The translations under genes and the position numbers were made by a program. From a virus (Duplodnaviria; Heunggongvirae; Uroviricota; Caudoviricetes), in IMG/VR virus record IMGVR_UViG_2562617057_000009, positions 1-50,378 of that record: 50,378 nucleotides of DNA. One strand, given 5' to 3'. Positions 10,310 to 49,713 of the stretch are shown here, one piece after another (position 1 is the first letter of the stretch; the number at the start of each line of letters is the position of its first letter). The notes under the pieces are model-generated. The model ran no database searches, was not told where the DNA came from, and saw nothing but the letters and a program-made list of their open reading frames with translations.

Positions 10310-10965
10310 TTGTTCTCCAAGATATTGATTCTGCAATTTCGGGACGTTACACTGTCTCTGCCCCTTATAAAGCGGGGGCCGGGATTGGAACCCCGGAATT
10401 GATCGAGGCGATATACGACGCGCCAGCGTCTTTTTTATCGTCCGCGCTCACGCACGCCAGAATTATGGTGGGCTGGGCAGGGGAGCCGAAAGGCTCGCCG
10501 GTTTCCTTGATCGCCGGTAGTTCCAACCCTGTTCAGTCCGCCACCAGCGAGCTTGGAACCTCCGGTGGTGGAAGTTTTTCACCGATCAAGGAGGCTGCCA
10601 TCATGGCTACGATCCCAGTTTCCCCATTCCTCAAAATCGAAGTCGTCAACGGCAAGGCCGTTATTTTCTCTTTGCATGTAGCCTGCCATTTCAAGCGCAT
10701 GCACCAGAACATCGTCGACAAAATCGAGTATCTGAACTGCTCGCGCGAATTTTTTACCCGCAATTTCATACCGGGTACTTACCACATCTATGACGACTCT
10801 CTGCGTGGTTATTACATCACCCTTGATGGTCTGATGCTGCTTCAGCTTGGGTTAAGTCTGCGCACAATGCGGTACTACGAGAGTTGCATTGAAGCGTTCC
10901 ATGAGGCTGAAACCGTCCAGGTGCATTCCGCTTTCCGTCGTCATCAACGGGAGGTGCACCTATGA
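10306..10965 (+). CDS. module 1: Rha-like domain protein; the 5' ~300 nt of the ORF is a structured leader (alternative start ATG 10603 after AAGGAGG gives a 120-aa protein)
   Basis: C-terminal 120 aa are Rha-like; ORF start overlaps the upstream stop (ATGA). Confidence 0.55.
   Translation: MIVLQDIDSAISGRYTVSAPYKAGAGIGTPELIEAIYDAPASFLSSALTHARIMVGWAGEPKGSPVSLIAGSSNPVQSATSELGTSGGGSFSPIKEAAIMATIPVSPFLKIEVVNGKAVIFSLHVACHFKRMHQNIVDKIEYLNCSREFFTRNFIPGTYHIYDDSLRGYYITLDGLMLLQLGLSLRTMRYYESCIEAFHEAETVQVHSAFRRHQREVHL
10356..10602 (+). ncRNA. candidate c4/ImmI-like antisense regulatory element, copy 1
   Basis: Hairpin gcccc/ggggc (10360-10379), hairpin plus U-tract 10417-10436, GAAA-tetraloop hairpin 10480-10499, loop CCTTGATCG complementary to the SD region CGATCAAGG (10583-10591), GTTCCAA complementary to TTGGAAC at 10385 and 10553. 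Confidence 0.5.
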
Positions 10966-11621
10966 TCCGCTACCTGAATATTGATTCTGCAATTTCGGGA
11001 CGTTACACTGTCTCCGCACCTTATAAAGCGGGTGCCGGGATTTGCACCCCGGAATTGTCAACGGCGATATACGACGCGCCAGCGTCTTTTTTATCGTCCG
11101 CGCTCACGCACGCCAGAATTATGGTGGGCTGGGCAGGGGAGCCGAAAGGCTCGCCGGTCTCCGTTGACGCCGGTAGTGCAAACCCTGTTCAGTCCGCCAC
11201 CAGCGAGATTTGCACCTCCGGTGGTGGAAGTTTTCCACAGTCAACGGAGGCTGCCATCATGGCTACAGTCCCAACCCACTCATTCCTCAAAATTGAGACC
11301 GTCAACGGCAAGGCCGTTATTTTCTCTTTGCATGTGGCCTGCCACTTTAAGCGCATGCACCAGAACATCGTCGACAAAATCGAGTATCTGAACTGCTCGC
11401 GCGAATTTTTTACCCGCAATTTCATACCGGGTACTTACCACATCTATGACGACTCTCTGCGTGGTTATTACATCACCCTTGATGGTCTGATGCTGCTTCA
11501 GCTTGGGTTAAGTCTGCGCACAATGCGGTACTACGAGAGTTGCATTGAAGCGTTCCATGAGGCTGAAACCGTCCAGGTGCATTCCGCTTTCCGTCGTCAT
11601 CAACGGGAGGTGCACCTATGA
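10962..11621 (+). CDS. module 2: Rha-like domain protein (alternative start ATG 11259)
   Basis: Paralog of module 1; GGGAGGTG precedes the ATG, which overlaps the upstream stop. Confidence 0.55.
   Translation: MIRYLNIDSAISGRYTVSAPYKAGAGICTPELSTAIYDAPASFLSSALTHARIMVGWAGEPKGSPVSVDAGSANPVQSATSEICTSGGGSFPQSTEAAIMATVPTHSFLKIETVNGKAVIFSLHVACHFKRMHQNIVDKIEYLNCSREFFTRNFIPGTYHIYDDSLRGYYITLDGLMLLQLGLSLRTMRYYESCIEAFHEAETVQVHSAFRRHQREVHL
11012..11258 (+). ncRNA. candidate c4/ImmI-like antisense regulatory element, copy 2 (different specificity)
   Basis: Same architecture with compensatory changes: gcacc/ggtgc, TTTGCAC/GTGCAAA, CCGTTGACG versus GTCAACGG at the SD. Confidence 0.5.
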
Positions 11622-12478
11622 TCCGCTACCTGAATATTGATTCTGCAATTCCGGGACGTTACACTGTCTCTGCACCTTATAAAGCGGGTGCCGGGATTGG
11701 CGTCCTGAAATTCAATATAGAGCATAACCGCGCTCATGCGGTTTTTTCGTGTCATGAGCATTGCTACGCCCAAATTATGGTGGGGCGTGCAGGGGCATCG
11801 CAAGATGCGCCGGGTTCTATGTTGACCGGTTACGCCAACCCTGTACGTCTCACCACCTCTGTGATTGGCGTCCCATGTGGTGAGTTCTTTGAATTCAACA
11901 TAGGGGCTGTCACCATGACTACTCTCCCAACCCTCTCTCAACCTGAAATTGCCATCGTTGATGGTCAGGCTGTTACTTCATCCCTGGCTGTTGCCAACTT
12001 CTTCTCTAAACGTCATGACGATGTTCTGAAAAAGATCCGCATTTTGGATTGTTCTCCAGAGTTTTGTGCCCGCAATTTTGCGGAGACATCAATTTTGGTA
12101 CGCCAGCCCAACGGCGGTACTCGCAAACTTCCCTGCTACCAAATCACCCGCGACGGCTTCGCCTTCCTTGCTATGGGCTTCACTGGTAAACGTGCCGCCC
12201 GGTTCAAAGAGGCATACATCAATGCCTTTAACCAGATGGAGAGGAGCTTATCAGGAGCTGGTGCGGCTGACATGTCATCTGTCGCACAAAACGCCAGAGG
12301 CGTATACCTGCATTTGCGTGAAATCCATCAAATCTGGACAAGCCAGCTTTACCCAATGCTTAAGGCCGTTGAATCTCCGCTGGCTGGCAAACTGTACGAC
12401 CGTGTAGGTGATGCTGTTTTTGGTGCTGCACTTGTTGATTCCAGGCTGAATGGTTCTGACAAGGAGGTGCGCCCATGA
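11618..12478 (+). CDS. module 3: full Rha-family regulatory protein (alternative start ATG 11915)
   Basis: Rha-like motif (VTSSLAVANFFSKRHDDVLKKIR); diverged leader of the same design. Confidence 0.6.
   Translation: MIRYLNIDSAIPGRYTVSAPYKAGAGIGVLKFNIEHNRAHAVFSCHEHCYAQIMVGRAGASQDAPGSMLTGYANPVRLTTSVIGVPCGEFFEFNIGAVTMTTLPTLSQPEIAIVDGQAVTSSLAVANFFSKRHDDVLKKIRILDCSPEFCARNFAETSILVRQPNGGTRKLPCYQITRDGFAFLAMGFTGKRAARFKEAYINAFNQMERSLSGAGAADMSSVAQNARGVYLHLREIHQIWTSQLYPMLKAVESPLAGKLYDRVGDAVFGAALVDSRLNGSDKEVRP
11667..11914 (+). ncRNA. candidate c4/ImmI-like antisense regulatory element, copy 3 (third specificity)
   Basis: Terminator-like hairpin aaccgc/gcggtt plus U-run at 11726-11749, GCAA-tetraloop hairpin, TTGGCGT/ACGCCAA pairing, loop CTATGTTGA complementary to TCAACATAG next to the SD. 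Confidence 0.45.
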
Positions 12479-17824: not shown

Positions 17825-18454
17825 ATGAAGCATGAAGAAATGAATCAGCGATTCAATCACCTGGAAAATGAAATCACTGAGCTTAATAAAAAATTGTCGG
17901 CGTTGGTGAGTTCTGAAGATGAAAACAAACGCCGCGATGAGCATTATGCGGCGATTTACGATTACTGCCACAAAGTCGCTCACGAGACTTTTATGAAGTT
18001 TTTGCAGGAAAAGTTTTTACCGGCCGCATTGTCAGAAAAAGAGGCGGCTTACCTGCGGCCTGAGTACGTCATTACGGTTAACAGTGCCGGAGAGGAAGAG
18101 CATAAAAGTGATTTTATTGCGTCTGCACCGGATAAAGACCAGGAACCCCGTCGGCCTTTCAGGGTTTCCTGTGAAGAGGGTGAGTTCGTCGTTTATGAGA
18201 ACGGAAAACCTGTCCGGGCATCGCATCATCACTGCCTGAAAATTATTAATCTCGCTATCAGATGCCTGAAAGACGAAAACACCAGAGTTATGAAACGCAT
18301 TGGCCGTTGCATGGGGTATTTGCAGGTGGCGGCAGAGATTGAAGCACTTGCCAGTGGTGCAGACATGGATGCTGCGGTGCGGGAGGCTCTTCTTCGTGAT
18401 TTCAATACTCCCCCTTTAAGAAAGAGCCTGATGACTGGATCCAGCCGGGGCTGA
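17825..18454 (+). CDS. hypothetical 209-aa protein inserted between holin and endolysin
   Basis: Acidic, coiled-coil-like N-terminus; no lysis-protein features. Confidence 0.55.
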   Translation: MKHEEMNQRFNHLENEITELNKKLSALVSSEDENKRRDEHYAAIYDYCHKVAHETFMKFLQEKFLPAALSEKEAAYLRPEYVITVNSAGEEEHKSDFIASAPDKDQEPRRPFRVSCEEGEFVVYENGKPVRASHHHCLKIINLAIRCLKDENTRVMKRIGRCMGYLQVAAEIEALASGADMDAAVREALLRDFNTPPLRKSLMTGSSRG

Positions 18455-18519
18455 CTTATCTTAAAAGGCGTATATAAGTTGGCTCGTTATTTGTTGCCGA
18501 TAAATCCTGATAAATATCC

Positions 18520-19053
18520 ATGAGCGCAAAAATCAAATACGGCCTGTCGGCTGCTGTTCTGGCGCTGATTGCCGCAGGCGCGTCTGCTCCCCAGATACTT
18601 GACCAGTTTCTGAACGAAAAAGAGGGTAATCACACAACGGCATACCGTGATGGTTCTGGCATATGGACCATCTGTCGTGGTGCCACAATGGTGGATGGTA
18701 AGCCTGTCATACCGGGAATGAAGCTGTCGAAGGAAAAATGTGACCAGGTTAACGCTATTGAACGTGATAAGGCGCTGGCATGGGTGGAGCGCAATATTAA
18801 AGTACCTCTGACCGAACCACAGAAAGCGGGTATAGCGTCATTTTGTCCCTATAACATTGGCCCCGGTAAGTGTTTTCCGTCGACGTTTTATAAGCGGCTG
18901 AATGCTGGTGATCGTAAAGGTGCATGCGAGGCGATTCGCTGGTGGATAAAAGATGTTGGGCGCGATTGCCGCATACGTTCAAATAACTGCTATGGACAGG
19001 TTATTCGTCGTGACCAGGAAAGCGCATTAGCCTGTTGGGGGATAGATCAATGA
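18520..19053 (+). CDS. R: SAR endolysin (T4-type lysozyme with N-terminal signal-arrest-release domain)
   Basis: Gly/Ala-rich N-terminal membrane segment followed by catalytic E-x8-D-x5-T ([16 protein letters not shown]). Confidence 0.85.
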
Positions 19054-19517
19054 GCAGAGTCACCGCGATTATCTCCGCTCTGGTTATCTGCATCATCGTC
19101 TGCCTGTCATGGGCTGTTAATCATTACCGTGATAACGCCATTACCTACAAAGAGCAGCGCGACAAAAACGCAAGAGAACTGAAGCTGGCGAACGCAACCA
19201 TTACTGACATGCAGCAGCGCCAGCGTTCTGCTGATGCACTCGATGCTAAATACACGAAGGAGTTAGCTGATGCGAAAGCTGAAAATGATGCTCTTCGGCG
19301 CAAGCTTGATAATGGTGGTCGGGTGCTCGTCAAAGGAAAATGCCCTGTGCCATCCTCAGCCGAAACCTCCAGCGCCTCCGGCATGGGCAATGATGCCAGC
19401 GTCGAACTCTCTCCAGTTGCTGGACGAAACGTTCTCGGTATCAGAGACGGAATCATCAGAGACCAGACAGCACTGAGAACGCTTCAGGAATACATCAGAA
19501 CGCAGTGTCTGAATTAA
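19050..19517 (+). CDS. Rz: Rz-like i-spanin
   Basis: N-terminal transmembrane segment then coiled-coil; immediately after the endolysin. Confidence 0.75.
19270..19476 (+). CDS. Rz1: Rz1-like o-spanin lipoprotein embedded in the +1 frame of Rz
   Basis: Lipobox VVGCSS, proline-rich, wholly inside Rz in another frame. Confidence 0.6.
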
Positions 19518-19657
19518 CGGAGCTGGAATGAATGCTGTTTACCTGTTGCGGAAATAAAGATTGCATATTGCGACAATTTGTTGCATGTTTAAGGTGCGCT
19601 TTTCCAGAGCGTATGCGTACGCACCGCATGAAGTACAACCACAGAGAGGCAACCATA

Positions 19658-19888
19658 ATGGCAACAAGCATCCGTTTAGACGATGATTTCGTCAGTGACG
19701 TAAAGGTTCACGCTGATGCCGCAAGTCGCAGCATACCAAAACAAATTGAGCACTGGGCTAAGATTGGTCGTATAGCTGAAGATAATCCAGATCTGCCATT
19801 CAGTTTTATTAGCGAAGTTCTGCTGTCACAAAGCGAAATCAGACACAACAAGGTAACGCGTTATGTCAGAAGAACAGACAGGTCGTGA
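19658..19888 (+). CDS. type II antitoxin (ParD-like)
   Basis: 76-aa ORF after AGAGAGG; overlaps the start of the downstream RelE/ParE-like gene. Confidence 0.55.
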   Translation: MATSIRLDDDFVSDVKVHADAASRSIPKQIEHWAKIGRIAEDNPDLPFSFISEVLLSQSEIRHNKVTRYVRRTDRS

Positions 19889-20192
19889 AATTGATGTTTA
19901 TCAGAGTCGGCGTTTCGAAAAGTCTCTGAGTAAACTCCCGGAAGCGCAACTGAAAGTTGTGGAAGATGAGATCGACAGAATAATTGACAATCCTCTGTTG
20001 GGAACGCAAAAGAAAGGAGACCTCAGTTTTCTTCGTGTGCATAAATTTCAGCTGAATAATCAACAGGTGCTTCTGGGTTACAGCTGGCTTGACGATAAAC
20101 TTGAGCTCTACCTCCTTAGCATCGGTCCACATGAAAATTTTTATACCGATCAGAAAAAACACCGAAAAGCTGATTTAAAACTCATCGGTTAG
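19863..20192 (+). CDS. RelE/ParE-family toxin
   Basis: 109-aa basic protein in a two-gene overlapping arrangement typical of type II TA pairs. Confidence 0.55.
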   Translation: MSEEQTGREIDVYQSRRFEKSLSKLPEAQLKVVEDEIDRIIDNPLLGTQKKGDLSFLRVHKFQLNNQQVLLGYSWLDDKLELYLLSIGPHENFYTDQKKHRKADLKLIG

Positions 20193-20211
20193 TCCTGACG
20201 TCATGCATACC

Positions 20212-20237
20212 AGCCCACGTAAACGCGTGGGCTTTTT
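20212..20237 (+). terminator. intrinsic terminator after the TA pair
   Basis: 8-bp stem agcccacg/cgtgggct followed by TTTTT. Confidence 0.65.
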
Positions 20238-20448
20238 CATATCTGAATTTCACCGCGCACCGCAGCGCATGATAACCACCGAACCTGCCCCTTTGGAATG
20301 AGCCTTTGAGGATACCAGTTAGTGCTGGCGAGCCTCGGTGGGCTGGTTTCCTGTGCGGCAAAGGTTCATTTCAAAGAACAGGTATACGACATGAAATCAT
20401 TAACCTGAGGTGTACTGGCAATAGCGGACACTACCATTTGTTCTTTTT

Positions 20449-21267
20449 TTAAGCAGCCATCTGATGATATTTTTCCCTGAAGGCTGCCGGGGAGATATTC
20501 CCCAGACGAGAGTGACGACGCTGACGATTGTAGAAAATCTCAATGTATTCCCGTATTACTGAGATGGCTTCATCCCGGTTATTAAAACGATAGTGGCTCA
20601 GGCTCTCATTTTTCAGCGTTCCCCAGAAGCTTTCCATCGGAGCGTTGTCGTAACAGTTACCTTTACGCGACATTGATGTTTTCAGACCAAACTGCTCCTG
20701 TATGACCCGGTAATCGTATGCGCAGTACTGTGAACCTCGATCAGAGTGGTGGATTAGCCCGGCAGGTGGGCGCTGGCTCCTGAGCGCCATAAACAGGGCT
20801 TTACCTGTCAGCTCTTTTGTCATGCGCTCTCCCATGGCGTAGCCGACAATTTCGCACGTATAAACATCTTTGATGCCAGCGAGGTACAACCATCCCTCCT
20901 GTGTGGCAACATACGTCAGGTCCGCCACCCAGACCTGATTTGGTGCTGTAGGAGCGAACGTCTGGTTCAGCAGATTTGGCGCAACTGGCAGATTGTGGTT
21001 CGAGTTCGTAGTCGCTCTGAACTTGCGTTTCTGCTTACAGCGTAGCCTTAGCTCCTTACGAAGACGTGCCAGTCGGTCACGACCAACGATGATGCCATTC
21101 TCTGCCAGCTCCGTCTGGAGCCGCCGGGTTCCATATGTTTCGCGAGTGCGGATATGTGCCACCTTAATCTCCAGTTTTAGCCGCTCATCACTTTGTTTTC
21201 TGTCTGAGGGTTCATGCTGTACCCAGTTGTAATAACCGCTCCTGGATACACCAAATACCTGACACAT
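20449..21267 (-). CDS. IS3-family transposase OrfB (DDE catalytic domain)
   Basis: DDE-type integrase-core motifs; located after orfA with overlap expected for frameshifted OrfAB. Confidence 0.75.
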   Translation of the reverse strand: MCQVFGVSRSGYYNWVQHEPSDRKQSDERLKLEIKVAHIRTRETYGTRRLQTELAENGIIVGRDRLARLRKELRLRCKQKRKFRATTNSNHNLPVAPNLLNQTFAPTAPNQVWVADLTYVATQEGWLYLAGIKDVYTCEIVGYAMGERMTKELTGKALFMALRSQRPPAGLIHHSDRGSQYCAYDYRVIQEQFGLKTSMSRKGNCYDNAPMESFWGTLKNESLSHYRFNNRDEAISVIREYIEIFYNRQRRHSRLGNISPAAFREKYHQMAA

Positions 21268-21302
21268 CGCTTCAATGGGAAATTGTTGTCGCCATTGTTC
21301 GA

Positions 21303-21605
21303 TTAACGCGTATTTTTCAGCGACTCCTGTGCAAAATACGCTGTTGCTTTTTTTAATATATCTCGCTCAAGGCGAGCTTCATTTAACGCCTTACGCAGTT
21401 GCAGAATTTCAGATTCCAGTTCAGCCACCGTGCGGGAACCAGGAGTACCGAGCCCTTTTCTGGCGGCGGTAACCCATTGTCCTAAAGTGCCTTCAGGAAG
21501 GGATAATCGGGAAGCGCCTTCACTGATCGAAAGTTGATTTTCAAGAACCGTTCTGACAGCTTCGGCTTTGAACTCTTTAGAGTAACGTTGGGTTTTTCTG
21601 CTCAT
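21303..21605 (-). CDS. IS3-family transposase OrfA
   Basis: 100-aa HTH protein typical of IS3-family OrfA. Confidence 0.75.
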   Translation of the reverse strand: MSRKTQRYSKEFKAEAVRTVLENQLSISEGASRLSLPEGTLGQWVTAARKGLGTPGSRTVAELESEILQLRKALNEARLERDILKKATAYFAQESLKNTR

Positions 21606-22151
21606 TATTAGCTCCTTCTGATGCCATTCTATTTCAGGAAGGAGTGTCCGTTAAACTCAGGCTACCTCAACCCTCTTCAATCAGCCAATCCGTATCGGTG
21701 AAGATGGCATGATCTGCCTCACTGATATGTGGAAAGCCAGTGGTAAAAGTGAATCTGAATCTCCGTACCACTACCTGCGAAACAAGCAGACCAAAGAGTT
21801 CTTAGCCGAGCTGGAGAAAAACCACGAATCTGTGGTTTTTACTGAGCGCGGTGTACACGGTGGAACATATGGCGGGAAGTTTGTTGCTTATGATTATGCA
21901 GCATGGCTAAACCCCGGATTTAAATATGCAGCCTATAAAGTCCTGGATGACTACTTCACCGGAGAACTTCAGCATCGCAACAGCTTAAGTGCGCAGCTCA
22001 ATATGAAGTGTCATGAGTTTGATCAGAAAAAAGATATGGCGAGCTTCTGTGGACAAGGGCTGGCGGCATGGCGCTATACGAAGCCAGTGTTGGTCGCTGA
22101 GATTAACTCCCTGGCTAACCAGCTGCAGATAACGATCCCCGGGCTTCCGGG

Positions 22152-22409
22152 ATGAGTGATCGTGTCATTGAATGCGCCTCCAGAGCGGGGCGCGACTTCT
22201 CAGAGTTCATGAAAGGCGAGAAGGGCATGATGGAAGCATTGGCCTCGGTGGATGAGTTTGGCGAGCAGCTGCGCCTCAACGGCTGTGTCAATCATCACTT
22301 TGTTAGCTACATGATGCGGAACTCGATCATGCAGGCATTCATGGACATGGCAAAAGCCGAGAGGAAAGAAGAGCGCCGGCGTAAGCGAGCGGAAGCAAAA
22401 GCGAAGTAG
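22152..22409 (+). CDS. hypothetical protein
   Basis: 85-aa ORF overlapping the KilA-N stop. Confidence 0.45.
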   Translation: MSDRVIECASRAGRDFSEFMKGEKGMMEALASVDEFGEQLRLNGCVNHHFVSYMMRNSIMQAFMDMAKAERKEERRRKRAEAKAK

Positions 22410-22832
22410 CCATTACAAAGCCCATCTACTGGTGGGCTTGATAATGGCTTATACCCTACACGGGATAACTTAACTGATATCCCTTTTAACGGATAAAGGT
22501 ATTCAAGCCTGACACATCATGCGCTGTATCGTCGCTGTATTCCCGCATTAACCATGACCGTAGCCCGACGGGGAACTCCTTCTGCGCGAGTGTGCGGGAA
22601 TAATCAAAAACGATGCACACCGGGTTTTTACCGCGTTTATGGTTCGCGGGTTTGTCCCTCATGCTCGCCAGTCCTGTGCGGGGGTGGAAGAAACAGGACA
22701 CTTACACTGATTCTTGTGGGTACGATGCTATTCCTTTCTGGATTATCCCGATGTCATTCATGCAGGGCGCTGTATCAGACGTTCGTCATGGCTGTCAGGC
22801 TGACGGGTCCTCCCGGTGGGGTGGCCTGCCAC

Positions 22833-22980
22833 GGGGCGGGAGCGGCGCAGAATTTCACTATTTATGAAAATTTTTCGGAAACCATGTCCGGTTTCTCTGA
22901 AGGTTAACCATTTGAAAAATATAGAAATGTGCCTTCTGCGAACCGGACATGCGCAAAAATTGAACACTCAAACCGGACAT
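22833..22980. other. cos region (cosN-like core ggggcgggagcggcgc and ACCGGACAT repeats) of the lambdoid prophage
   Basis: Sequence pattern ...TTACGGGGCGG...CTATTTATGAAAATTTT... resembles the recalled lambda cos; ~220 bp upstream of Nu1. Confidence 0.6.
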
Positions 22981-23058
22981 ATATGCCGCGTTTCATAAAG
23001 TTGTTCGCAAGATGCATGTTTAAAACGCATGAGGGGAGATTTTTTGGCGAGGTGAACA

Positions 23059-23568
23059 GTGGCTACTCAGACTGAAGTTGCCAGGCATTTGAGTCTGACC
23101 GATCGCCAGCTTCGCAGATTACAGAAACTGCCGGGTGCCCCGGTTTCGAACAAGCGAGGACAACTGGATCTGGATGCCTGGCGTGATTTTTACATATCGT
23201 ATCTGAGAAGAAGTAAAAACGATGTGCCTGATGGTGATCCGGAAGAGGATTATGAAGAGAAACTACTCATTGCGAGATGGGAACTGACCGCAGAACAGGC
23301 TGTCGCACAGCAGTTAAAAAATCAGGTGTCAAAAGGAAATCTTATTGATAGCGGATTTTGTATTTTTGCCCTTAGTAAGCTGGCGATGGCTTTATCCAGT
23401 ACGCTTGACTCCATTCCTTTGTCCATGCAACGACAGTTCCCGGATTTAACGCCGCGTCATATTGATCATCTGAAAATCCTTATTGCTAAGGGAGCGAATC
23501 AGTGCGCGCGTGCGGGGGATAAATTACCGGATTTACTCGATGAATATATCAGAACAACAACTGAGTAA
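23059..23568 (+). CDS. nu1: terminase small subunit (lambda Nu1-like)
   Basis: C-terminal region aligns with recalled lambda Nu1 (FCIFALSKLA...LPLSMQRQFPDL...HIDHLK); GTG start. Confidence 0.8.
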   Translation: MATQTEVARHLSLTDRQLRRLQKLPGAPVSNKRGQLDLDAWRDFYISYLRRSKNDVPDGDPEEDYEEKLLIARWELTAEQAVAQQLKNQVSKGNLIDSGFCIFALSKLAMALSSTLDSIPLSMQRQFPDLTPRHIDHLKILIAKGANQCARAGDKLPDLLDEYIRTTTE

Positions 23569-24900
23569 TATGATGGTGGCAGTCACTATCGCACTGCAGC
23601 CACTGGTCAGGGTATTGCCGGTGACGGCTGTAGAATGGGCCGATCAAAATTATTACCTGCCTAAAGAATCGTCATACGGTGAGGGGGAATGGAAAACGCT
23701 GCCGTTTCAGGTCGCCATCATGAACTGCATGGGCAATGACGAGATTCGTACAGTTAACCTGATTAAATCTGCCCGTGTTGGTTATACAAAGATGTTGCTG
23801 GGGGTGGTCGGGTATTTTATTGAGCATAAATCCCGCAACAGCCTGCTTTTTCAGCCCACTGACTCGGCTGCTGAAGATTTTATGAAGTCTCACGTGGAGT
23901 CGACGATCCGGGACGTACCCTGTCTGAAAGCCCTTTCTCCATGGCTGGGACGTAAACATCGTGACAATACCCTCACACTGAAACGCTTTTCCTCCGGCGT
24001 GGGATTCTGGTGTCTGGGCGGTGCAGCTGCCAAAAACTACCGTGAAAAATCTGTGGATGTGGTCTGCTATGACGAACTCTCCTCGTTTGAACCGGATGTG
24101 GAAAAAGAAGGTTCGCCGACGCTGCTTGGCGATAAACGTATCGAAGGTTCGGTATGGCCTAAATCCATACGCGGCTCAACGCCAAAAATTAAAGGCTCCT
24201 GTCAGATTGAAAAAGCTGCGAATGAATCTGCGCATTTCATGCGGTTTTATGTCCCTTGCCCTCATTGCGGGGAGGAGCAGTATCTGAAGTTTGGCGATGA
24301 TGCGACGTCGTTTGGCCTGAAATGGGAGAAGGGTAAACCGGAAACGGTGTATTACCTGTGTGAACATAATGGCTGCGTGATCCGTCAGTCTGAACTTGAT
24401 CAGACCGGGGGGCGCTGGATTTGTGACAATACCGGGATGTGGACGCGTGACGGCCTGACATTTTACAGCGTCGGTGATGAGGAGATACCCCCGCCACGTT
24501 CTGTCACTTTCCACATCTGGACGGCGTACAGCCCGTTCACTACCTGGGCGCAGATTGTTTATGACTGGCTGGATGCACTGAAGGATCCTAACGGCGTCAA
24601 GACGTTTGTAAACACCACACTGGGGGAGACCTGGGAAGAGGCCGTGGGCGAAAAACTCGATCACCAGGTGCTGATGGATAAGGTTGTGCATTACCCGGCG
24701 GCGGTGCCTGTCCGGGTGGTTTACCTGACTGCTGGTATTGACTCGCAGCGAAACCGTTTTGAGATGTATGTCTGGGGATGGGCTCCGGGAGAGGAAGCCT
24801 TTCTGGTGGATAAAATCATCATTATGGGACGACCTGATGAGGAAGAGACGCTGTTACGTGTGGATGCGGCGATCAACAAAAAATACCGCCATGCAGACGG
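23540..24900 (+). pseudogene. A: terminase large subunit (lambda gpA-like), 3'-truncated by IS1
   Basis: Collinear with recalled lambda A for ~450 aa (TAVEWADQNYYLPKES...); reading frame runs into the IS1 left end at 24901. Confidence 0.8.
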
Positions 24901-24955
24901 GGTGATGCTGCCAACTTACTGATTTAGTGTATGATGGTGTTTTTGAGGTGCTCCA

Positions 24956-25231
24956 GTGGCTTCTGTTTCTATCAGCTGTCCCTCCTGTTCAGCTACTGAC
25001 GGGGTGGTGCGTAACGGCAAAAGCACCGCCGGACATCAGCGCTATCTCTGCTCTCACTGCCGTAAAACATGGCAACTGCAGTTCACTTACACCGCTTCTC
25101 AACCCGGTACGCACCAGAAAATCATTGATATGGCCATGAATGGCGTTGGATGCCGGGCAACTGCCCGCATTATGGGCGTTGGCCTCAACACGATTTTACG
25201 TCACTTAAAAAACTCAGGCCGCAGTCGGTAA
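24956..25231 (+). CDS. insA: IS1 InsA
   Basis: 91-aa protein matching recalled InsA. Confidence 0.9.
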
Positions 25232-25653
25232 CCTCGCGCATACAGCCGGGCAGTGACGTCATCGTCTGCGCGGAAATGGACGAACAGTGGGGCTATGTCG
25301 GGGCTAAATCGCGCCAGCGCTGGCTGTTTTACGCGTATGACAGTCTCCGGAAGACGGTTGTTGCGCACGTATTCGGTGAACGCACTATGGCGACGCTGGG
25401 GCGTCTTATGAGCCTGCTGTCACCCTTTGACGTGGTGATATGGATGACGGATGGCTGGCCGCTGTATGAATCCCGCCTGAAGGGAAAGCTGCACGTAATC
25501 AGCAAGCGATATACGCAGCGAATTGAGCGGCATAACCTGAATCTGAGGCAGCACCTGGCACGGCTGGGACGGAAGTCGCTGTCGTTCTCAAAATCGGTGG
25601 AGCTGCATGACAAAGTCATCGGGCATTATCTGAACATAAAACACTATCAATAA
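25150..25653 (+). CDS. insB: IS1 InsB reading frame
   Basis: 167-aa ORF matching recalled InsB. Confidence 0.85.
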
Positions 25654-25668
25654 GTTGGAGTCATTACC

Positions 25669-42402: not shown

Positions 42403-43741
42403 CATAAGCGCTAACTTAAGGGTTGAACCATCTGAAGAATGCGACGCCTCGGTGCCTCGTTAAGACGATGCCTCGCGTTCTTCAATTGCGTTTTGTAGGC
42501 TGTCAGGGATACTGTCCCACGAATGGCCACCTGTAAGCTCCAGATGACCATTTTTGTTATTCTCCACAACGAGTTAGTTCTTCTTTTCGGATCCGGCACT
42601 TCTGGGGGGGAAATCCAGCGATGGCTGGATTATGTCGTCAATTAAAAATGCGGCGAGTAGATTAGCAAATATCCACGCTTTCGCGAGTTCAGGTTCCTTT
42701 GCACGCAAAGCATCCAGGTGCAGCAAACTTTTGAGCCGCTTAAAAGCCAGTTCAATTTGCCATCGCAGACGGTAACAATCAGCCACTTGCTCTGCTGAAT
42801 ATTCATCTTCCGGTAATGATGTTAGCAATAGCACATGGCCCGCTGCTTCCAGCGTTTCCGCCTGAACTACTCGTCCTTTTCGACGATTCTCGCTGAGCAG
42901 TCGGGTTTTACTGATTAATGCTTTTTCGGGAGGAAGTGATACGGCAATGAGACGTGCCGGAAAGGGAGCTCCGGCTTTTTTATTACCTGAATTGCCTATC
43001 ATTACAGTGGTTTCACCGTTCTTACCGCAATCCAGCCCGCGCAGAAAACCCATCATGTCAAAGCGCATTCCTTCTGCAGTTAACCAGCGCAATCCTCGCC
43101 AGTGAACCCGGACGATATAATCAGCTTCTCCAAAAGCAAGTGAGCGGATACATTCGGGACGCGAACCGAATCCCCGGTCAGCAATGCGTATCTCGTCTGC
43201 CGTTTGCGCAAATCGGTCCAGCCGTTCAGCGTCTCTGCTGTCGGTTAGCTCAAAATCAGTGAACTGACAGGTATGAGGATCATATCCCATATGTAGTCGC
43301 CATTCAGCGCTGCCGCCCCCGGGCGCACTGATTGCTGTTCCATCGACAAGACGCAATCTCTTTCCGCTTGTACAACCCGTAACTGCGGCGCGTACAGCAA
43401 GTGTTTGTGCGGCAAGTATGCCAAACCAGTCGGCGGCATTCCGCAGCCGCTTCAGGAGAGCCACGTCAGATAATGTTGCAACGTCATGGAGCTGAGCCCA
43501 TGCAGTGACTTCACGTAATGACATCCCCCCGGGGCCGTAAGCCAGCCCCAGACGTAGCAGAGTTGCAGCATCACGAATTTCGCGGCGGCGGGTTAGAGCC
43601 CCGGCATTACGTGCCGAAGTATCCAGTTCTTCGGGCTTACCAATATGGGCCAGAATTGCTGACCAGTTATCGTGAGAGTAATTCATCGGCACGTTAAATC
43701 ATATCAGGCGTAATACCACAACCCTTAAGTTAGCGCTTATG
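42403..43741 (-). mobile_element. IS186 (IS4 family, ~1339 bp)
   Basis: Terminal inverted repeats CATAAGCGCTAACTTAAGGGTTG at both ends; transposase matches recalled IS186; flanks differ on the two sides. Confidence 0.8.
42574..43692 (-). CDS. IS186 transposase
   Basis: 372-aa ORF filling the element. Confidence 0.8.
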   Translation of the reverse strand: MPMNYSHDNWSAILAHIGKPEELDTSARNAGALTRRREIRDAATLLRLGLAYGPGGMSLREVTAWAQLHDVATLSDVALLKRLRNAADWFGILAAQTLAVRAAVTGCTSGKRLRLVDGTAISAPGGGSAEWRLHMGYDPHTCQFTDFELTDSRDAERLDRFAQTADEIRIADRGFGSRPECIRSLAFGEADYIVRVHWRGLRWLTAEGMRFDMMGFLRGLDCGKNGETTVMIGNSGNKKAGAPFPARLIAVSLPPEKALISKTRLLSENRRKGRVVQAETLEAAGHVLLLTSLPEDEYSAEQVADCYRLRWQIELAFKRLKSLLHLDALRAKEPELAKAWIFANLLAAFLIDDIIQPSLDFPPRSAGSEKKN

Positions 43742-44058
43742 GGGAATTTTCCCCGCACACGCCGGAGAACTGGATCACCACGCACAACGGCATTGAGTAC
43801 ACGGCACCAGCACCAGGGGAGAACATCCGCGACAACGCTCCAAACTTTCATAAATGGCTTGATCACGCTGCCGGAAAAGATCCGGGCAAGATGATGCGTA
43901 TATGCGCCGCGCTATACATGATTATGGCGAACCGGTACGACTGGCAGATGTTTATTGAGGCCACCGGAGACGGCGGGAGCGGCAAGAGCACTTTCACGCA
44001 CATAGCCAGCCTTCTGGCAGGGAAACAGAACACAGTAAGGCAGTATGACTTTCCGTGA
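43742..44058 (+). pseudogene. internal fragment of a P4-type primase/helicase gene (Walker A GDGGSGKS)
   Basis: Frame reads ...YDWQMFIEATGDGGSGKSTFTHIASLLAGKQN...; no start codon; begins at the IS186 end. Confidence 0.6.
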
Positions 44059-44059
44059 G

Positions 44060-45565
44060 ACAGATGCTGGCCAACGTGGGATATTTAACGCGGGTTAACA
44101 TCGTTGTCAGAGCCGCATGGGTGAGCTGTTGCTACACCCCGGTATTTCCACCACGGAGGCCAGCATGAACAACAATAACACATTGTACGTCGGGTTAGAT
44201 GTTCACAAAGAATCGATTACTGTCGCTTATGCTATCAATTCAGAACCTGTTGAACTGATGGGTAAAATTGGCACATCACCTACTGATATTCAGAATCTTT
44301 GTAAACGTCTCAGGTCAAAGTCATCGCAGGTCAGTATCGTTTATGAAGCGGGGCCCTGTGGTTATGGACTTTATCGTCGGCTGGTGAAATCCGGTTTTGA
44401 CTGCATGGTCTGCGCCCCCTCACTTATCCCGAAAAAACCGGGGGAGCGGGTTAAAACCGATCGCCGTGATGCCATCAGACTTGTGCGTTCACTGCGTGCA
44501 GGAGATCTTTCTGCTGTCTACGTACCCGGCATTGAAGATGAGGCATTCCGGGATTTGGCCCGGGCATGGGCATCTGCCCGCGATGATTTACGGCATGCAA
44601 GGCAACGTCTGAAATCGTTTCTTCTGGTTCATGGGGTCCATTATGTCGGGCGAGCAGATTGGGGCCCTGCACACCGACGCTGGCTCAGCAAATACTCATT
44701 CGAAAGTCCCTGGCGACAATTAGCTTTTGACGAACACCGTCGTACAATAGAAGACCGGCAGGCACAATGTGAACGGCTGGAATCCGCCCTGAAGGAGGCC
44801 GTTACCGAATGGAGGCTGTATCCGGTAGTAGAGGCGCTGCAAGCCATGCGAGGGATTCAGTTTATTACTGCGGTTGGATTAATTTCTGAACTGGGTGATC
44901 TGACCCGTTTTGAACATCCACGACAACTGATGTCATGGTTTGGTATCACGCCATCAGAATATTCATCGGGTGGAAGCAGACATCAGGGCAGCATTACCAA
45001 AGCCGGAAACAGCTATGCCAGAAAGCTATTGGTCGAGGCAGCGTGGAGTTACCGTCATCCGGCACGCATCAGTCCGGCAATACAAAAAAGGCAGGAAAAT
45101 TTACCCCGCCCCGTCATTGACAGAGCATGGGATGCTCAACTCAGGCTTTGTAAGAGGTATCGAAAACTTCAGGCCAAAGGAAAGAATGTCAATATTACAA
45201 TTGTTGCTGTTGCACGTGAGCTGGCGGGTTTTATCTGGGATATGGGCCGAATAGCAATGTCTGTCGCACAACAACCACAATGTCACAAATAAAAAATGAG
45301 AATAACCAGTTCCCTGAAGGCGACGTAGCCCGGTACAAGAGTAACCCACGTTAGCGCTTGGCGACGGCGGAACAAAGCTGATTCGCGACGTAAGAAAGTG
45401 GCAGGCTCATATGACGGACCTCTGTAATGCGGTATCCAACCCGCGAATATCAGCGTGATTCACCGTCGGATTTACTGCTACGTCGCCCTCAGGGAATTAA
45501 ACCTAAAAAGAAAATCGTCAAAATTAGAGATTCCGGTTTGACACGGAAAGTCATATCAGCGCTGA
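44060..45565 (+). mobile_element. IS110-family insertion sequence (boundaries approximate) inserted in the primase gene
   Basis: Transposase with DEDD-type N-terminus (LYVGLDVHKESITVA); primase coding sequence resumes at 45567. Confidence 0.55.
44165..45292 (+). CDS. IS110-family transposase
   Basis: Start MNNNNTLYVGLDVHK; ~375 aa. Confidence 0.7.
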   Translation: MNNNNTLYVGLDVHKESITVAYAINSEPVELMGKIGTSPTDIQNLCKRLRSKSSQVSIVYEAGPCGYGLYRRLVKSGFDCMVCAPSLIPKKPGERVKTDRRDAIRLVRSLRAGDLSAVYVPGIEDEAFRDLARAWASARDDLRHARQRLKSFLLVHGVHYVGRADWGPAHRRWLSKYSFESPWRQLAFDEHRRTIEDRQAQCERLESALKEAVTEWRLYPVVEALQAMRGIQFITAVGLISELGDLTRFEHPRQLMSWFGITPSEYSSGGSRHQGSITKAGNSYARKLLVEAAWSYRHPARISPAIQKRQENLPRPVIDRAWDAQLRLCKRYRKLQAKGKNVNITIVAVARELAGFIWDMGRIAMSVAQQPQCHK

Positions 45566-45566
45566 G

Positions 45567-46292
45567 ATGACATCGCTTGATGATGCTGGTGGGCGTGCAC
45601 AGGTTGTCGGGAGTCGTCTTATCGTCCTGGCAGACCAGCCGAAATATACAGGCGAAGGAACGGGCATCAAGAAAATCACGGGCGGCGACCCCGTGGAAAT
45701 TAACCCGAAATATGAAAAGCGTTTTACGGCGGTAATCAGGGCGGTGGTGCTGGCAACCAATAACAATCCGATGATATTCACCGAACGGGCCGGAGGCGTG
45801 GCACGTCGTCGCGTGATTTTCCGTTTCGACAATATCGTCAACGAGGCCGAAAAAGACAGGGAACTACCGGAAAAGATTGCGGCTGAAATCCCCGTCATTA
45901 TCCGCCGATTACTGGCGAACTTTGCAGACCCTGAAAAGGCGCGGGCTTTACTACTGGAACAGCGTGACGGTGATGAAGCACTGGCGATAAAGCAGCAAAC
46001 GGATCCGGTTATTGAGTTTTGCCAGTTCCTGAATTTTCTGGAGGAAGCACGTGGCCTGATGATGGGTGGCGGTGGCGATTCCGTGAAGTACACGACCAGA
46101 AACAGCCTTTACCGCGTCTATCTGGCGTTTATGGCATACGCAGGCAGAACCAAACCACTAAACGTAAATGACTTTGGCAAGGCCATGAAGCCAGCCGCAA
46201 AAGTTTACGGACATGAATATATTACGCGAAAAATTAATGGAGTGACGCAGACTAACGCAATAACAACCGACGATTGCGACGCGTTTTTATAA
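45567..46292 (+). pseudogene. 3' part of the P4-type primase/helicase gene
   Basis: Continues the primase C-terminal region (LIVLADQPKYTGEGTGIKKITGGDPVEINPK...). Confidence 0.65.
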
Positions 46293-46299
46293 TTTTTGG

Positions 46300-46545
46300 C
46301 AATTGCTGTCTACCTTGTCTACCTGATTACATAAAAGTTGTTTTAATTCAGTGTATTAATTTAGGTAGACAGCTTTTTTTTACTGTCTACAAGCTGTCTA
46401 CCTTGTCTACCTGTTTTTGTAGCCAGTCGGAGGGATGGGTAGACATCAGGTAGACAGAGATTTTTTACTGTCTACCACCATAAAACCCGCGTCATTACTG
46501 GCCTGAGCATCCACCAGGTAGATAAGGTAGACAAGGTGGGGGTAT
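46300..46545. repeat. iteron array: at least 11 copies of GGTAGACA / TGTCTACC in both orientations (putative satellite ori)
   Basis: Directly downstream of the primase gene; includes palindromes around T-runs. Confidence 0.6.
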
Positions 46546-46582
46546 CTCCAAAACTTTTTAAACGAGGGGGGTAAAAACAAAA

Positions 46583-46840
46583 ATGCACACATCAGGAAAA
46601 CTTAACAATCAGAAGAAGCAACATAACCGCGCCATTGACCTTACAGAGCACTGGCTGAGGGTGGCGATAAAAATCATCGACCGCAACGCGGGAGAAGGAT
46701 ACGCGAAAGCACATCCTGAACTGATAAGCGCATTCATGACCACGGCGGCAGCAAACTTTGCCACGCTGACAGAACGGGAGATTGCCGAAGCGGAACAGGT
46801 GACAACCATCAACGTTAAAACCGGAGAGCAGACAGCATGA
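46583..46840 (+). CDS. hypothetical protein
   Basis: 85-aa ORF upstream of and overlapping the SSB start. Confidence 0.45.
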   Translation: MHTSGKLNNQKKQHNRAIDLTEHWLRVAIKIIDRNAGEGYAKAHPELISAFMTTAAANFATLTEREIAEAEQVTTINVKTGEQTA

Positions 46841-47259
46841 CAGCACAGATAGCAGCTTACGGGCGGCTGGTGGCTGACCCGCAGTTAAAGACCACCAGCA
46901 AAGGGACACAAATGGCGATGGCGAGTATGGCGGTTCCCCTGCCGTGCAGCCAGGCCGATGACGGAACGGCGACGATGTGGTTATCCGTCCTGGCGTTTGG
47001 CAGACAGGCCGAAGCACTGGCAAAGCACCGCAAGGGTGAACCCCTGAGCGTGGCGGGTAACATGCAGGTGAGCCAGTGGACCGGACAGAACGGGGAAATG
47101 CGGCAGGGCTGGCAGGTTATCGCAGACAGCGTAATCAGTGCGAGAACGGCGCGACCGGGCGGCAAAAAAGGCCAACAGGGGCAGGCTGCTGATGCACTGA
47201 GCAGAGCAAAACAACAGGCGGGAAATGATGATCCGTACGGGGATAACATACCGTTTTAA
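46837..47259 (+). CDS. ssb: single-stranded DNA-binding protein (SSB-like)
   Basis: OB-fold-like N-terminus, Gly/Gln-rich tail ending DDPYGDNIPF (SSB acidic tip). Confidence 0.7.
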   Translation: MTAQIAAYGRLVADPQLKTTSKGTQMAMASMAVPLPCSQADDGTATMWLSVLAFGRQAEALAKHRKGEPLSVAGNMQVSQWTGQNGEMRQGWQVIADSVISARTARPGGKKGQQGQAADALSRAKQQAGNDDPYGDNIPF

Positions 47260-47272
47260 GCAACGAGTAACA

Positions 47273-47297
47273 GAAGCCGGAGCAATCCGGCTTTTTT
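47273..47297 (+). terminator. intrinsic terminator
   Basis: Hairpin gccggagcaatccggc plus TTTTTTAT. Confidence 0.7.
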
Positions 47298-47325
47298 ATG
47301 GGTCCTCCCGGTGTAGTGACCTGCC

Positions 47326-47343
47326 ACGGGGCGGGAGCGGCGC
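47326..47343. other. cos-like site C (cosN-like core acggggcgggagcggcgc)
   Basis: About 40 bp on the left side match the cos region at 22800-22848; right side unrelated. Confidence 0.45.
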
Positions 47344-47606
47344 GGAAAAAGGCTAGTTTTTGAAATTTCATTCGTCATCACCACTACTGTAATGGATTGA
47401 TATTACAGTGGTTTTATTTTTATGGTGTCGATTTTGATTGTTTTTTTGTTCGACACCTTTGCAGGCAGATAAAAAAGCCCGATAAGTACAGGAGGCAAAC
47501 TTAGCGGGCTTTTTCATATATGAGGTTAACAGCATGGTGACTACTGTTTCCGGAAATCATTTCATAATTTGCAACATGGATCGATATTATTGCGAAATAT
47601 GAAATC

Positions 47607-47642
47607 ATGATTATAATCATAACTGGATGAACATCCAGTTAT
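47607..47642. promoter_or_regulatory. two perfect palindromes (ATGATTATAATCAT; ATAACTGG-N8-CCAGTTAT) upstream of the capsid gene block
   Basis: Adjacent to the first gene of the capsid block. Confidence 0.4.
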
Positions 47643-47673
47643 GATTTTTAACGTCAAAGAGGAATTTCTGACT

Positions 47674-47880
47674 ATGGCAGAAGAGAAAAAAGGTGGGGTT
47701 ACAGTCTACATAAGCCCCGACATCGTGGAGGCACTCAAGGAACGCCACCAGCAGAACGTAAAAGCGAGCATTGCGGCAGGACTTGATCCGCTGGCAATGG
47801 TTGAGCCGTCAACAGGCTGGCAGGTGCGCGCCTATTTACGTGCGGCGTTGGGCATGAATCAGGTTCACGGGGGTGAATAA
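47674..47880 (+). CDS. hypothetical small protein preceding the capsid gene
   Basis: Start MAEEKK after AAGAGGA; stop overlaps the E-like start. Confidence 0.45.
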   Translation: MAEEKKGGVTVYISPDIVEALKERHQQNVKASIAAGLDPLAMVEPSTGWQVRAYLRAALGMNQVHGGE

Positions 47881-48935
47881 TGGCAGGTAAAGCAACGGCT
47901 CTTAACACTAACCAGCTTTTCGCGTACCTGAATCGGCAGGATGTTCCGGATTTTAGATTCAGTCCGCTGTTTACGTCGCTGTTTTTTCCGAACGTGGCGA
48001 CCTTCAACACGCAGGACATCATGCTGGATACCCTGGATATTGAAGAAGTCACCATGTCGGCGTTTTGTTCGCCTATGGTGGGTAGCCAGGTTCAGCGCGA
48101 TAAAGGGTACGAAACAAGCACTATCCGCCCCGGCTACATGAAGCCCAAGCACGAAATCGATCCATCAAAAACCATTATGCGCATGGCTGGAGAAGATCCG
48201 GCACAGCTTAACGACCCCACCTGGCGACGTATGCGCCTCATTACTGGCAACATGCGCCGCCAGATAAACGCCATTAAAGCGCGTGTGGAATGGCTGGCAG
48301 TGAATGCGGTCACGACCGGAAAAAACATCATTGAAGGCGAAGGCATAGAACGCTATGAAATCGACTGGAATATGCCGGCAAACTGCATTGTCCATCAGGG
48401 GCCAGGAAAAAAATGGTCTGAGCAGAATAAAGAGACGCATGATCCGACAGATGACATCGAGCTATACGCCGAACAGGCCAGCTGCCCCGCCAACGTCATG
48501 ATTATGGGCGCTGAGGTATGGCGAACGTTACGCAGCTTTAAAAAATTCCGCGAGCTGTACGATCTTTCCCGTGGTTCAGAATCCGCCGCAGAGCTGGCGT
48601 GTAAAAACCTGGGCGAAGTGGTGAGCTTTAAAGGCTATCTGGGCGATATTGCCCTTATCGTCTATTCCGGCAAATACGCCGACAGCGACGGCACCGAAAA
48701 ATATTTCCTTGAGCCTGATTTGCTTGTCCTGGGCAACACCAACAATAAAGGGCTGGTGGCCTATGGTGCGATTATGGATCAGGACGCAGTAAGAACGGGC
48801 GCAACGCAAAACATGTTTTACCCGAAAAACTGGATTGAGGACGGCGATCCGGCGATTGAGTACGTGCAGACGCACAGCGCACCGCAGCCGGTTCCGGCAG
48901 ATATTCGCAAATTTGTTACCGTCAAAATTGGTTAA
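47880..48935 (+). CDS. E: major capsid protein, lambda gpE family
   Basis: Collinear with recalled lambda E (YMKPKHEIDP..., TWRRMRLITGNMR..., HDPTDDIELYA..., YPKNWIEDGDPA...). Confidence 0.8.
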   Translation: MAGKATALNTNQLFAYLNRQDVPDFRFSPLFTSLFFPNVATFNTQDIMLDTLDIEEVTMSAFCSPMVGSQVQRDKGYETSTIRPGYMKPKHEIDPSKTIMRMAGEDPAQLNDPTWRRMRLITGNMRRQINAIKARVEWLAVNAVTTGKNIIEGEGIERYEIDWNMPANCIVHQGPGKKWSEQNKETHDPTDDIELYAEQASCPANVMIMGAEVWRTLRSFKKFRELYDLSRGSESAAELACKNLGEVVSFKGYLGDIALIVYSGKYADSDGTEKYFLEPDLLVLGNTNNKGLVAYGAIMDQDAVRTGATQNMFYPKNWIEDGDPAIEYVQTHSAPQPVPADIRKFVTVKIG

Positions 48936-48946
48936 CGGGAGATTCT

Positions 48947-49282
48947 ATGGGCACTCCATATGTTGAGTTATTTGCAGGCAGTCAGCAGGTCGCCACGACG
49001 CTGGTACATTTTGCCGCTGATGCTGGCGTTATTCAGGAATTTACCCCGCTGATGCTGGCGGACAATGGCGAGTTTAAGGCGTGGGATGGTCAGGAATCTG
49101 GCAAGGCTGTTTATCTGACGGCGTACCCCGTGGACACGTCAAAGCAGAAATCAGCACAGTGTTACAAGACGGGGATATTCAATATTGCCGCCGTTAACTG
49201 GCCTGAGAGCGTCGACACCGATGCGAAAAAATGCGCCGCCTTTACGGGTTCTGGCGTATCCGTTCAGCCGCTGGCCCGATAA
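48947..49282 (+). CDS. head decoration protein, lambda gpD-like
   Basis: C-terminal region (TPLMLADNGEFKAWDG...) resembles recalled lambda D. Confidence 0.55.
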   Translation: MGTPYVELFAGSQQVATTLVHFAADAGVIQEFTPLMLADNGEFKAWDGQESGKAVYLTAYPVDTSKQKSAQCYKTGIFNIAAVNWPESVDTDAKKCAAFTGSGVSVQPLAR

Positions 49283-49294
49283 GCAGGGGGAACG

Positions 49295-49708
49295 ATGGCA
49301 ACGAATGAAAGCATCATGGCGCTACCGCTGGCGAGTAAATTTAAAGCCGAAGCGCGGGCAATGGCTGACAGAGGGTTATCAACCTACGAGGCCATATATC
49401 AACTTAACAAACTGGAAGAGCAGGACAAGCCGCGCGCTGATGCGATTATGGCGCTTGATGAATCTGGCGACTATCAGCCGCTGTTACGTGCAATGGCAAA
49501 CGTGCCTTGTATCGATGTTGGTACGGCTAAAAGCATTCTTAGCATGACCATAGAGCAGGAACGCCAGAAGGTTGCACCAGAGCTTACCGCAGCCTTTGAA
49601 AACTTTATGGACATACACAGCCCGAAAGCCGTATCAGCTGGCATGGCATACGATGGCAGAAACCCGGGCGATGACGGCGACATCGATCGCATACTGAAAA
49701 CCATCTGA
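49295..49708 (+). CDS. hypothetical protein
   Basis: 137-aa ORF followed by a terminator. Confidence 0.45.
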   Translation: MATNESIMALPLASKFKAEARAMADRGLSTYEAIYQLNKLEEQDKPRADAIMALDESGDYQPLLRAMANVPCIDVGTAKSILSMTIEQERQKVAPELTAAFENFMDIHSPKAVSAGMAYDGRNPGDDGDIDRILKTI

Positions 49709-49713
49709 GACAG

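Follow-up and report, generated by a model that had tools for sequence, protein, structure and literature searches.

IS600, a member of the IS3 family, was first described in Shigella sonnei and is one of the five insertion sequences (IS) that have expanded in all Shigella and in enteroinvasive Escherichia coli (EIEC) (PMC7373316). The locus considered here lies in a 50,378-nucleotide stretch of viral DNA (IMG/VR record IMGVR_UViG_2562617057_000009; the whole stretch is called the window), where, as we conclude with high confidence, an intact IS600 has transposed into a KilA-N/ORF11CD3 gene, a homologue of hkbK, in a prophage of the EIEC 53638 lineage. In the IS3 family two overlapping frames give OrfA and, when ribosomes shift by -1 at an A AAA AAA heptamer, OrfAB. 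OrfAB is a DDE transposase that acts by copy-out/paste-in transposition through a circular intermediate, and its cuts in the target are staggered by 3 bp, which leaves a direct repeat on the two sides of the element. The copy in the window shares with IS600 the length of 1264 bp, the TGAGGT...ACCTCA repeats, orfA and orfB, the -1 frameshift site and the 3-bp duplication; the element itself is without difference, and the insertion site alone is lineage-specific.

The closest described relatives of the interrupted gene encode HkbK of phage HK620, the protein named 'KilA' of the Stx phage 2851 and WP_000839225.1, and the protein that is restored when the element is removed is 96-100% identical to them over all 165 residues. 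Genes of the HkbK type occupy the same slot as the gene in the window, namely the interval between the lysis cassette and the terminase genes of lambdoid and P22-like phages, and are followed by an overlapping homologue of hkbL that encodes 85 amino acids (aa); the gene in the window differs in being split after codon 5. The KilA-N family takes its name from KilA of phage P1, its founding member, which kills the host when expressed. P1 KilA shares the N-terminal KilA-N domain with the protein in the window (29% identity over residues 11-127), but its C-terminal region is a different one (ORF11CD3 here), its genomic context is different and the protein in the window is much shorter, and on such similarity the host-killing phenotype cannot be transferred.

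The IS600 copy and its insertion site

The first-pass annotation of the window had placed an IS600-like element in the codon 5 region of a KilA-N gene, and all of its coordinates were borne out when the sequence was read over positions 20100-22700 and the element was excised by script. The parts of the interrupted gene and of the element are given below; empty-site genomes are those in which the same gene carries no element.

20391-20405, plus strand: 5′ fragment of the KilA-N gene (codons 1-5, MKSLT); the same ATG starts WP_000839225.1 in an empty-site genome
20391-20393, plus strand: start codon ATG of the gene, by sequence reading
20403-20405, no strand: first copy of the target-site duplication (ACC); empty sites have a single ACC
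20406-21669, minus strand: IS600, a complete 1264-bp copy with 100% identity over 1264 bp to annotated IS600 copies
20406-20437, plus strand: right inverted repeat (IRR), TGAGGTGTACTGGCAATAGCGGACACTACC..., by pairwise alignment with the other end
21638-21669, minus strand: left inverted repeat (IRL), TGAGGTAGCCTGAGTTTAACGGACACTCC..., the transposase-proximal end, by pairwise alignment with the other end
21626-21654, minus strand: promoter-like site TTAACG-17-TAGAAT, partly within IRL and upstream of orfA, a consensus match only
21303-21605, minus strand: orfA, 100 aa, with the helix-turn-helix (HTH) domain HTH_Tnp_1 (PF01527, E = 1.5e-20)
21348-21354, minus strand: slippery heptamer A AAA AAA, read in frame with orfA, at which a predicted -1 shift fuses orfA to orfB
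20449-21267, minus strand: orfB, 272 aa from the first ATG, with the DDE integrase-core (rve) catalytic domain (PF00665, PF13683, PF13333, PF13276); predicted to be translated within OrfAB once the frame has shifted
21670-21672, no strand: second copy of the target-site duplication (ACC), by sequence reading and excision
21673-22155, plus strand: 3′ part of the KilA-N gene (codons 6-165 and the stop), with KilA-N on residues 9-101 and ORF11CD3 on residues 109-161
21709-22155, plus strand: predicted residual open reading frame (ORF) of 148 aa from Met18, with GGTGA 7 nt upstream; the form given by gene callers in the interrupted genome (EDU66309.1)

The first five codons, ATG AAA TCA TTA ACC, are followed directly by the element, which measures exactly 1264 bp, starts with TGAGGT and finishes with ACCTCA, so that the interrupted frame reads MKSLT and then at once TGA, the first three bases of the element. 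Deletion of 20406-21672 in silico, that is, of the element and one ACC, leaves one unbroken ORF of 165 codons with its TGA at 22153-22155. The restored ORF lies above the Pfam cut-offs for KilA-N and ORF11CD3 and matches homologues from residue 1, which is the alignment across the junction on which the first-pass annotation had made its proposal depend. Two of its details have to be modified. A ribosome binding site (RBS) is indeed found upstream of the ATG, but the region is not rich in AGGT, as there is only one such motif, 7 nt 5′ of the ATG; and the termini are TGAGGT as described, but the inverted repeats are imperfect. On the other hand, the designation 'IS600-like' can be made stronger, given that the element is IS600 itself, 100% identical to RefSeq-annotated IS600 copies.

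The state of the locus before the insertion was sought with an empty-site query of 900 nt, in which the 400 nt to the left of the element and the 500 nt to its right are joined by one ACC. Seven complete E. coli genomes, among them EIEC strain CFSAN029787 and O121 strain 201805972, hold this query as a single piece with 100% identity, and this match of the excised sequence is well beyond chance. The annotation at the empty site consists of a ParE-family toxin, a KilA-N domain-containing protein and a hypothetical protein; in CFSAN029787 the KilA-N coding sequence (CDS) WP_000839225.1 (498 nt) begins at the same ATG according to the Prokaryotic Genome Annotation Pipeline (PGAP). Because the empty sites contain a single ACC, the two copies in the window are a target-site duplication, and the flanks were contiguous before the insertion. 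Its length of 3 bp agrees with the IS3 family and IS600, which duplicate 3 bp (or 3-4 bp) of the target.

The occupied site, by comparison, is found again at one place to which the residual 148-aa ORF led, in AAKB02000001.1 (GCA_000167915.2), which is the record of EIEC strain 53638, serotype O144 (PMC4374849). Window positions 18709-25155 are 100% identical to it over 6447 nt, and the locus there has the same arrangement of ParD/ParE, IS and KilA-N. In none of 5426 complete E. coli genomes is the left junction matched contiguously; coverage of at least 80% of the junction probe is reached only in two pieces with about 95% identity, at places that belong to another IS600 insertion in O26-type prophages. 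A scan of species-representative genomes for the exact junction gave no match. The closest relatives, which are 99.8-100% identical over the flanks, have an empty site. Since the relatives are empty, the left junction is absent from the 5426 genomes and the IS is 100% identical to other copies, the comparison points to an insertion that is recent and lineage-specific; given the empty site in the closest relatives, it could mark the strain 53638 lineage. The course of events that we hold to be highly probable is that IS600 entered a lambdoid prophage with ipaH in the EIEC 53638 lineage, between codons 5 and 6 of its KilA-N/ORF11CD3 gene, and duplicated the triplet ACC.

The transposase genes of the element are on the minus strand and hence antisense with respect to the KilA-N gene. 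The copy at 20406-21669 is the sole IS600 within the window. On EIEC chromosomes and large plasmids there are many copies with 100% identity to its 1264 bp, listed by RefSeq under the name 'IS3-like element IS600 family transposase', and judged against these RefSeq-named copies it has the near-identity of an IS600 isoform. With 1264 bp it also falls within the length of IS3-family elements (about 1.2-1.55 kb), which have imperfect repeats and 5′-TG...CA-3′ termini. An exact-seed inverted-repeat finder reported no inverted repeat in the element because its terminal repeats are too imperfect; by pairwise alignment they keep TGAGGT and a CGGACACT block, with 22 of 32 columns matching. The two consecutive, partly overlapping frames (0, -1) and the A-rich heptamer that are typical of the family are present. 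In a profile search orfB shows HTH_21 together with rve, rve_2 and rve_3. The predicted -1 shift at A AAA AAA would give an OrfAB of 385 aa (1157 nt), which equals in length the 'programmed frameshift' CDS that PGAP places on an identical copy, and OrfAB matches the NCBIfam model NF033516 (IS3 family transposase) with 414.5 bits, the cut-off being 160. An HTH OrfA, a DDE OrfB and a whole-protein match to the IS3 model are hence all found. The copy is complete and apparently functional, activity being suggested because its ORFs and ends are intact, it is identical to many copies and the insertion is absent in the closest relatives. A full IS600 is also present on a 1380-nt contig (coverage 1.3) of the Streptomyces sp. 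UG1 assembly, where it is almost certainly assembly contamination.

The interrupted gene and the effect of the insertion

In the restored protein KilA-N (PF04383) reaches 57.6 bits (cut-off 23.8) on residues 9-101, which fall on profile positions 8-106 of 107, and ORF11CD3 is detected by Pfam with 50.5 bits on residues 109-161. PHROG 129 ('transcriptional regulator') aligns over residues 1-163. The protein belongs to the KilA-N family by the profile cut-off, and the alignment is continuous over residues 5/6, between which the element lies. A protein of phage ECP1 is 100% identical to the restored 165-aa protein, HK620 HkbK and the 'KilA' of phage 2851 are 96-97% identical, and HkbK of Erwinia phage phiEt88 has 51% identity over residues 1-163; the exact 165-aa protein is found on at least 1000 public contigs. 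A sequence search of the PDB with the restored protein gave chance matches only and no solved relative, and a single-sequence AlphaFold model, with a mean pLDDT of 44, was not used.

Two further features are connected with the gene, one on each side of it.

20236-20390, plus strand: conserved leader of the interrupted gene, about 155 nt, predicted to form a long hairpin in which the AGGT Shine-Dalgarno is paired with the 3′ arm
22152-22409, plus strand: downstream gene of 85 aa (phrog_875, hypothetical), the start of which overlaps the KilA-N stop (ATGA); its HK620 homologue is hkbL

The leader is preceded by a terminator-like hairpin at 20212-20233, and its predicted fold has -55.7 kcal/mol (z = -3.0). 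Hundreds of E. coli prophages have this leader in front of a gene of either the KilA-N or the Rha family, the mosaic boundary lying at the start codon. Compensatory changes occur at 7 of 38 leader pairs in a 7-sequence alignment and come from two lineages only. An Rfam search of the region and of the whole window gave no match that overlaps the leader or the insertion.

The insertion places 1264 bp of antisense IS between the leader with the RBS and the remaining 160 codons, and the frame that opens with the native ATG is closed by the TGA of the IS terminus once five codons have been read. From this we infer that the full-length KilA-N protein would be lost. The overlapping 85-aa gene is probably translationally coupled to the interrupted gene, because its start overlaps the KilA-N stop (ATGA), and it would probably be down-regulated as well. 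A promoter that is directed outward from the IS end and drives the truncated gene was considered and rejected, as there is no plus-strand promoter-like site in 21500-21709. The insertion is probably selectively neutral because the prophage was already defective, as described below for its terminase, head and tail genes.

Genome decay through IS600 insertion into genes of prophages and of the chromosome is well documented in Shigella and EIEC (PMC7373316), and the present insertion is ordinary decay of this sort, known biology and not a new kind of system. It adds a further example of IS-driven prophage and gene decay in Shigella and EIEC genomes (PMC7373316). The sequence is already public, in a record that gives the remnant as a KilA-N protein of 148 aa (EDU66309.1); the locus would be better annotated as a KilA-N pseudogene split by IS600 than as a 148-aa 'KilA-N domain-containing protein'. 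Beyond correct annotation its importance is small.

Recurrent inactivation, start codon and junctions

The 5′ end of the gene might be a preferred target of IS3-family elements, or the gene might be inactivated repeatedly because it is harmful to the lysogen, in which case the insertion would have been selected; we regard this explanation as unlikely. GCA_900448735.1 has an IS3 with a GAT duplication at codon 16 of this KilA-N gene, oriented like the IS600 of the window (positions 1640-3000 of the locus examined). That case, however, was found by a search for the exact 148-aa residual ORF, which detects events in codons 1-17 only and is therefore biased. A nonsense allele, in which CAG/CAA of codon 9 is changed to TAA, is widespread, its annotated product being a protein of 148 aa that starts at Met18; it is seen at seven of the loci examined, at about positions 2950-3000. 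In O26:H11 prophages, moreover, IS600 splits a Rha-family gene in the same slot and behind the same leader, again in the same orientation and with an ACC duplication.

The O26:H11 case is represented by strain 97-3250 (NZ_CP027599.1), in which IS600 breaks the Rha-family gene after codon 27 (positions 3166-4513 of the locus examined). Its element together with both ACC copies differs from that in the window by 2 mismatches in a 1270-nt alignment, and ACC is followed in the same way by the in-frame TGA of the IS end. The interrupted gene and the prophage, however, are different ones, and the two insertions are independent events. At least 14 complete genomes, namely 97-3250 and no fewer than 13 further records, show the O26-type match to the junction probe, in two pieces.

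Selection of the target triplet was followed in 30 full-length, non-redundant IS600 copies surveyed at loci of S. flexneri and E. coli. The 3-bp repeat is kept by 12 of them, and all 12 triplets are different, so that a preference of IS600 for ACC/GGT was rejected and the ACC common to the window and the O26 insertion is a coincidence. A further IS600 copy, located in yehI, has the triplet GGA/TCC. Nor is there support for the 5′ end of the gene as a general hotspot of IS insertion: with the junction probe, the leader and the gene are seen uninterrupted in 364 of the 5426 complete E. coli genomes, and no IS-split copy occurs among 60 evenly spaced rows of the junction-probe ranking. The shared orientation of the three insertions is not significant (p = 0.25). 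At one locus IS911 abuts a variant allele, but the flanks do not match, and this was taken as a rearrangement and not counted as an insertion.

The broader notion, that the start of the KilA-N (or Rha-family) gene behind the structured leader is repeatedly knocked out or shortened in lysogens, is equally doubtful. The events behind it are IS600 in the window, IS3 at codon 16, the nonsense mutation at codon 9 and IS600 in the O26 Rha gene. If it were true, the full-length protein might be costly to the host; alternatively, the Met18-initiated 148-aa form with its GGTGA RBS might be the retained product.

A second explanation, which we consider very unlikely, assumes that Met18 (21709) is the true start. 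In this case the IS would lie in the 5′ leader, 39 nt upstream, and the protein would be intact but uncoupled from its promoter. The 148-aa form is annotated as a gene on 201 contigs, many prophages that have TAA at codon 9 of the longer frame, without any IS, are still annotated as carrying KilA-N, and the GGTGA motif stands at 7 nt 5′ of the Met18 ATG. The evidence nevertheless speaks for the upstream ATG. The Pfam KilA-N alignment begins at residue 9, which corresponds to profile position 8 of 107, and PHROG 129 is matched from residue 1 onward, while the 148-aa form enters that profile at position 20; homologues, one of them at 51% identity, also align from residue 1. Allele differences within the first 17 codons are in-frame and either synonymous (CAG/CAA, ATC/ATT) or conservative, the upstream ATG is used by three independent annotations (PGAP, HK620 hkbK and phage 2851 kilA), and at least 1000 contigs encode exactly the 165-aa form. 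The allele with TAA at codon 9 is treated here as a nonsense mutant.

Some points leave the consequences of the insertion uncertain. The Met18 ORF possesses its own Shine-Dalgarno-like motif, GGTGA; the 148-aa form is also all that remains in the widespread codon-9 nonsense allele; a truncated protein could still be produced if the region is transcribed; and the IS600 copy is taken to be active because it is intact and identical to other copies. No evidence contradicts the insertion itself, and the uncertain points concern its consequences only.

That the junctions result from IS-mediated recombination or repeat mis-assembly instead of simple transposition can be practically dismissed: IS600 is multicopy in genomes of this kind and rearrangement at IS600 is common, matching flanks being missing at 18 of the 30 surveyed S. 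flexneri and E. coli copies, but here the empty-site genomes have the two flanks side by side, separated by a single ACC, the 3-bp repeat of the 20406-21669 element is intact, and the public 53638 record has the identical structure at 100% identity.

The prophage and its surroundings

The element that hosts the IS600 insertion is a lambdoid prophage located beside yeh and btsSR genes, and the corresponding region in the best-matching relatives also carries ipaHe. From about 14 kb the order of genes is, from left to right, replication genes, the Q antiterminator, four tRNAs and lysis genes, which are followed by a ParD/ParE-like pair, the interrupted gene with its 85-aa partner and the small terminase gene. 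One more insertion sequence lies beyond them.

24901-25668: IS1, 768 bp, truncating the large terminase gene

IS1 is directly followed by a tail-tip remnant, lom and genes for tail fibres, and the head genes and most tail genes are missing. Because IS1 truncates the large terminase gene and the sequence then resumes in the tail-tip remnant, the prophage is defective and was already unable to form particles. Most of the large terminase gene and the head and tail genes had already been lost, through an IS1-associated deletion, before IS600 arrived.

The pair of a ParD-like antitoxin and a ParE-like toxin is located at 19532-20192, between the Rz lysis gene and the leader of the KilA-N gene. Matches to the 900-nt empty-site query are found in 972 genomes, only 8 of which cover at least 80% of it, that is, include the ParE part. 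In O121 strain 201805972, the nearest relative, window positions 17887-19127 are replaced by IS911 and a deletion; this interval includes the lysozyme gene (18520-19053) and the start of an Rz-like gene. Each lineage degrades the same prophage through different IS events.

Further to the left, positions 10360-11860 contain a unit that is present three times in tandem and comprises the Hfq-binding RNA isrK and a C4 antisense RNA, the latter being that of P1/P7 immunity. In a close relative this region corresponds to duplicated 'ash family' ORFs beside Rha and BRO-N genes. Near the right end of the prophage, between the ipaH-corresponding region and btsS, Rfam matches were obtained to CssrB, a Shigella small RNA (230 bits, 30624-30803), and to IS009 (129 bits, 31560-31763).

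At 42403 the window skips about 8 kb that are present in the O121 relative, comprising part of yehL upstream through yehK and yehI and including another IS600, and it resumes, in the interval 42403-43743, beside the IS4-like IS421. The last 6.6 kb (43743-50378) belong to a different phage-like element with a primase, a single-stranded DNA-binding protein (SSB), a major capsid gene and ISSso6 of the IS110 family, and this element sits elsewhere in the relatives. The jump at 42403 and the relocated 6.6 kb suggest an IS-mediated rearrangement.

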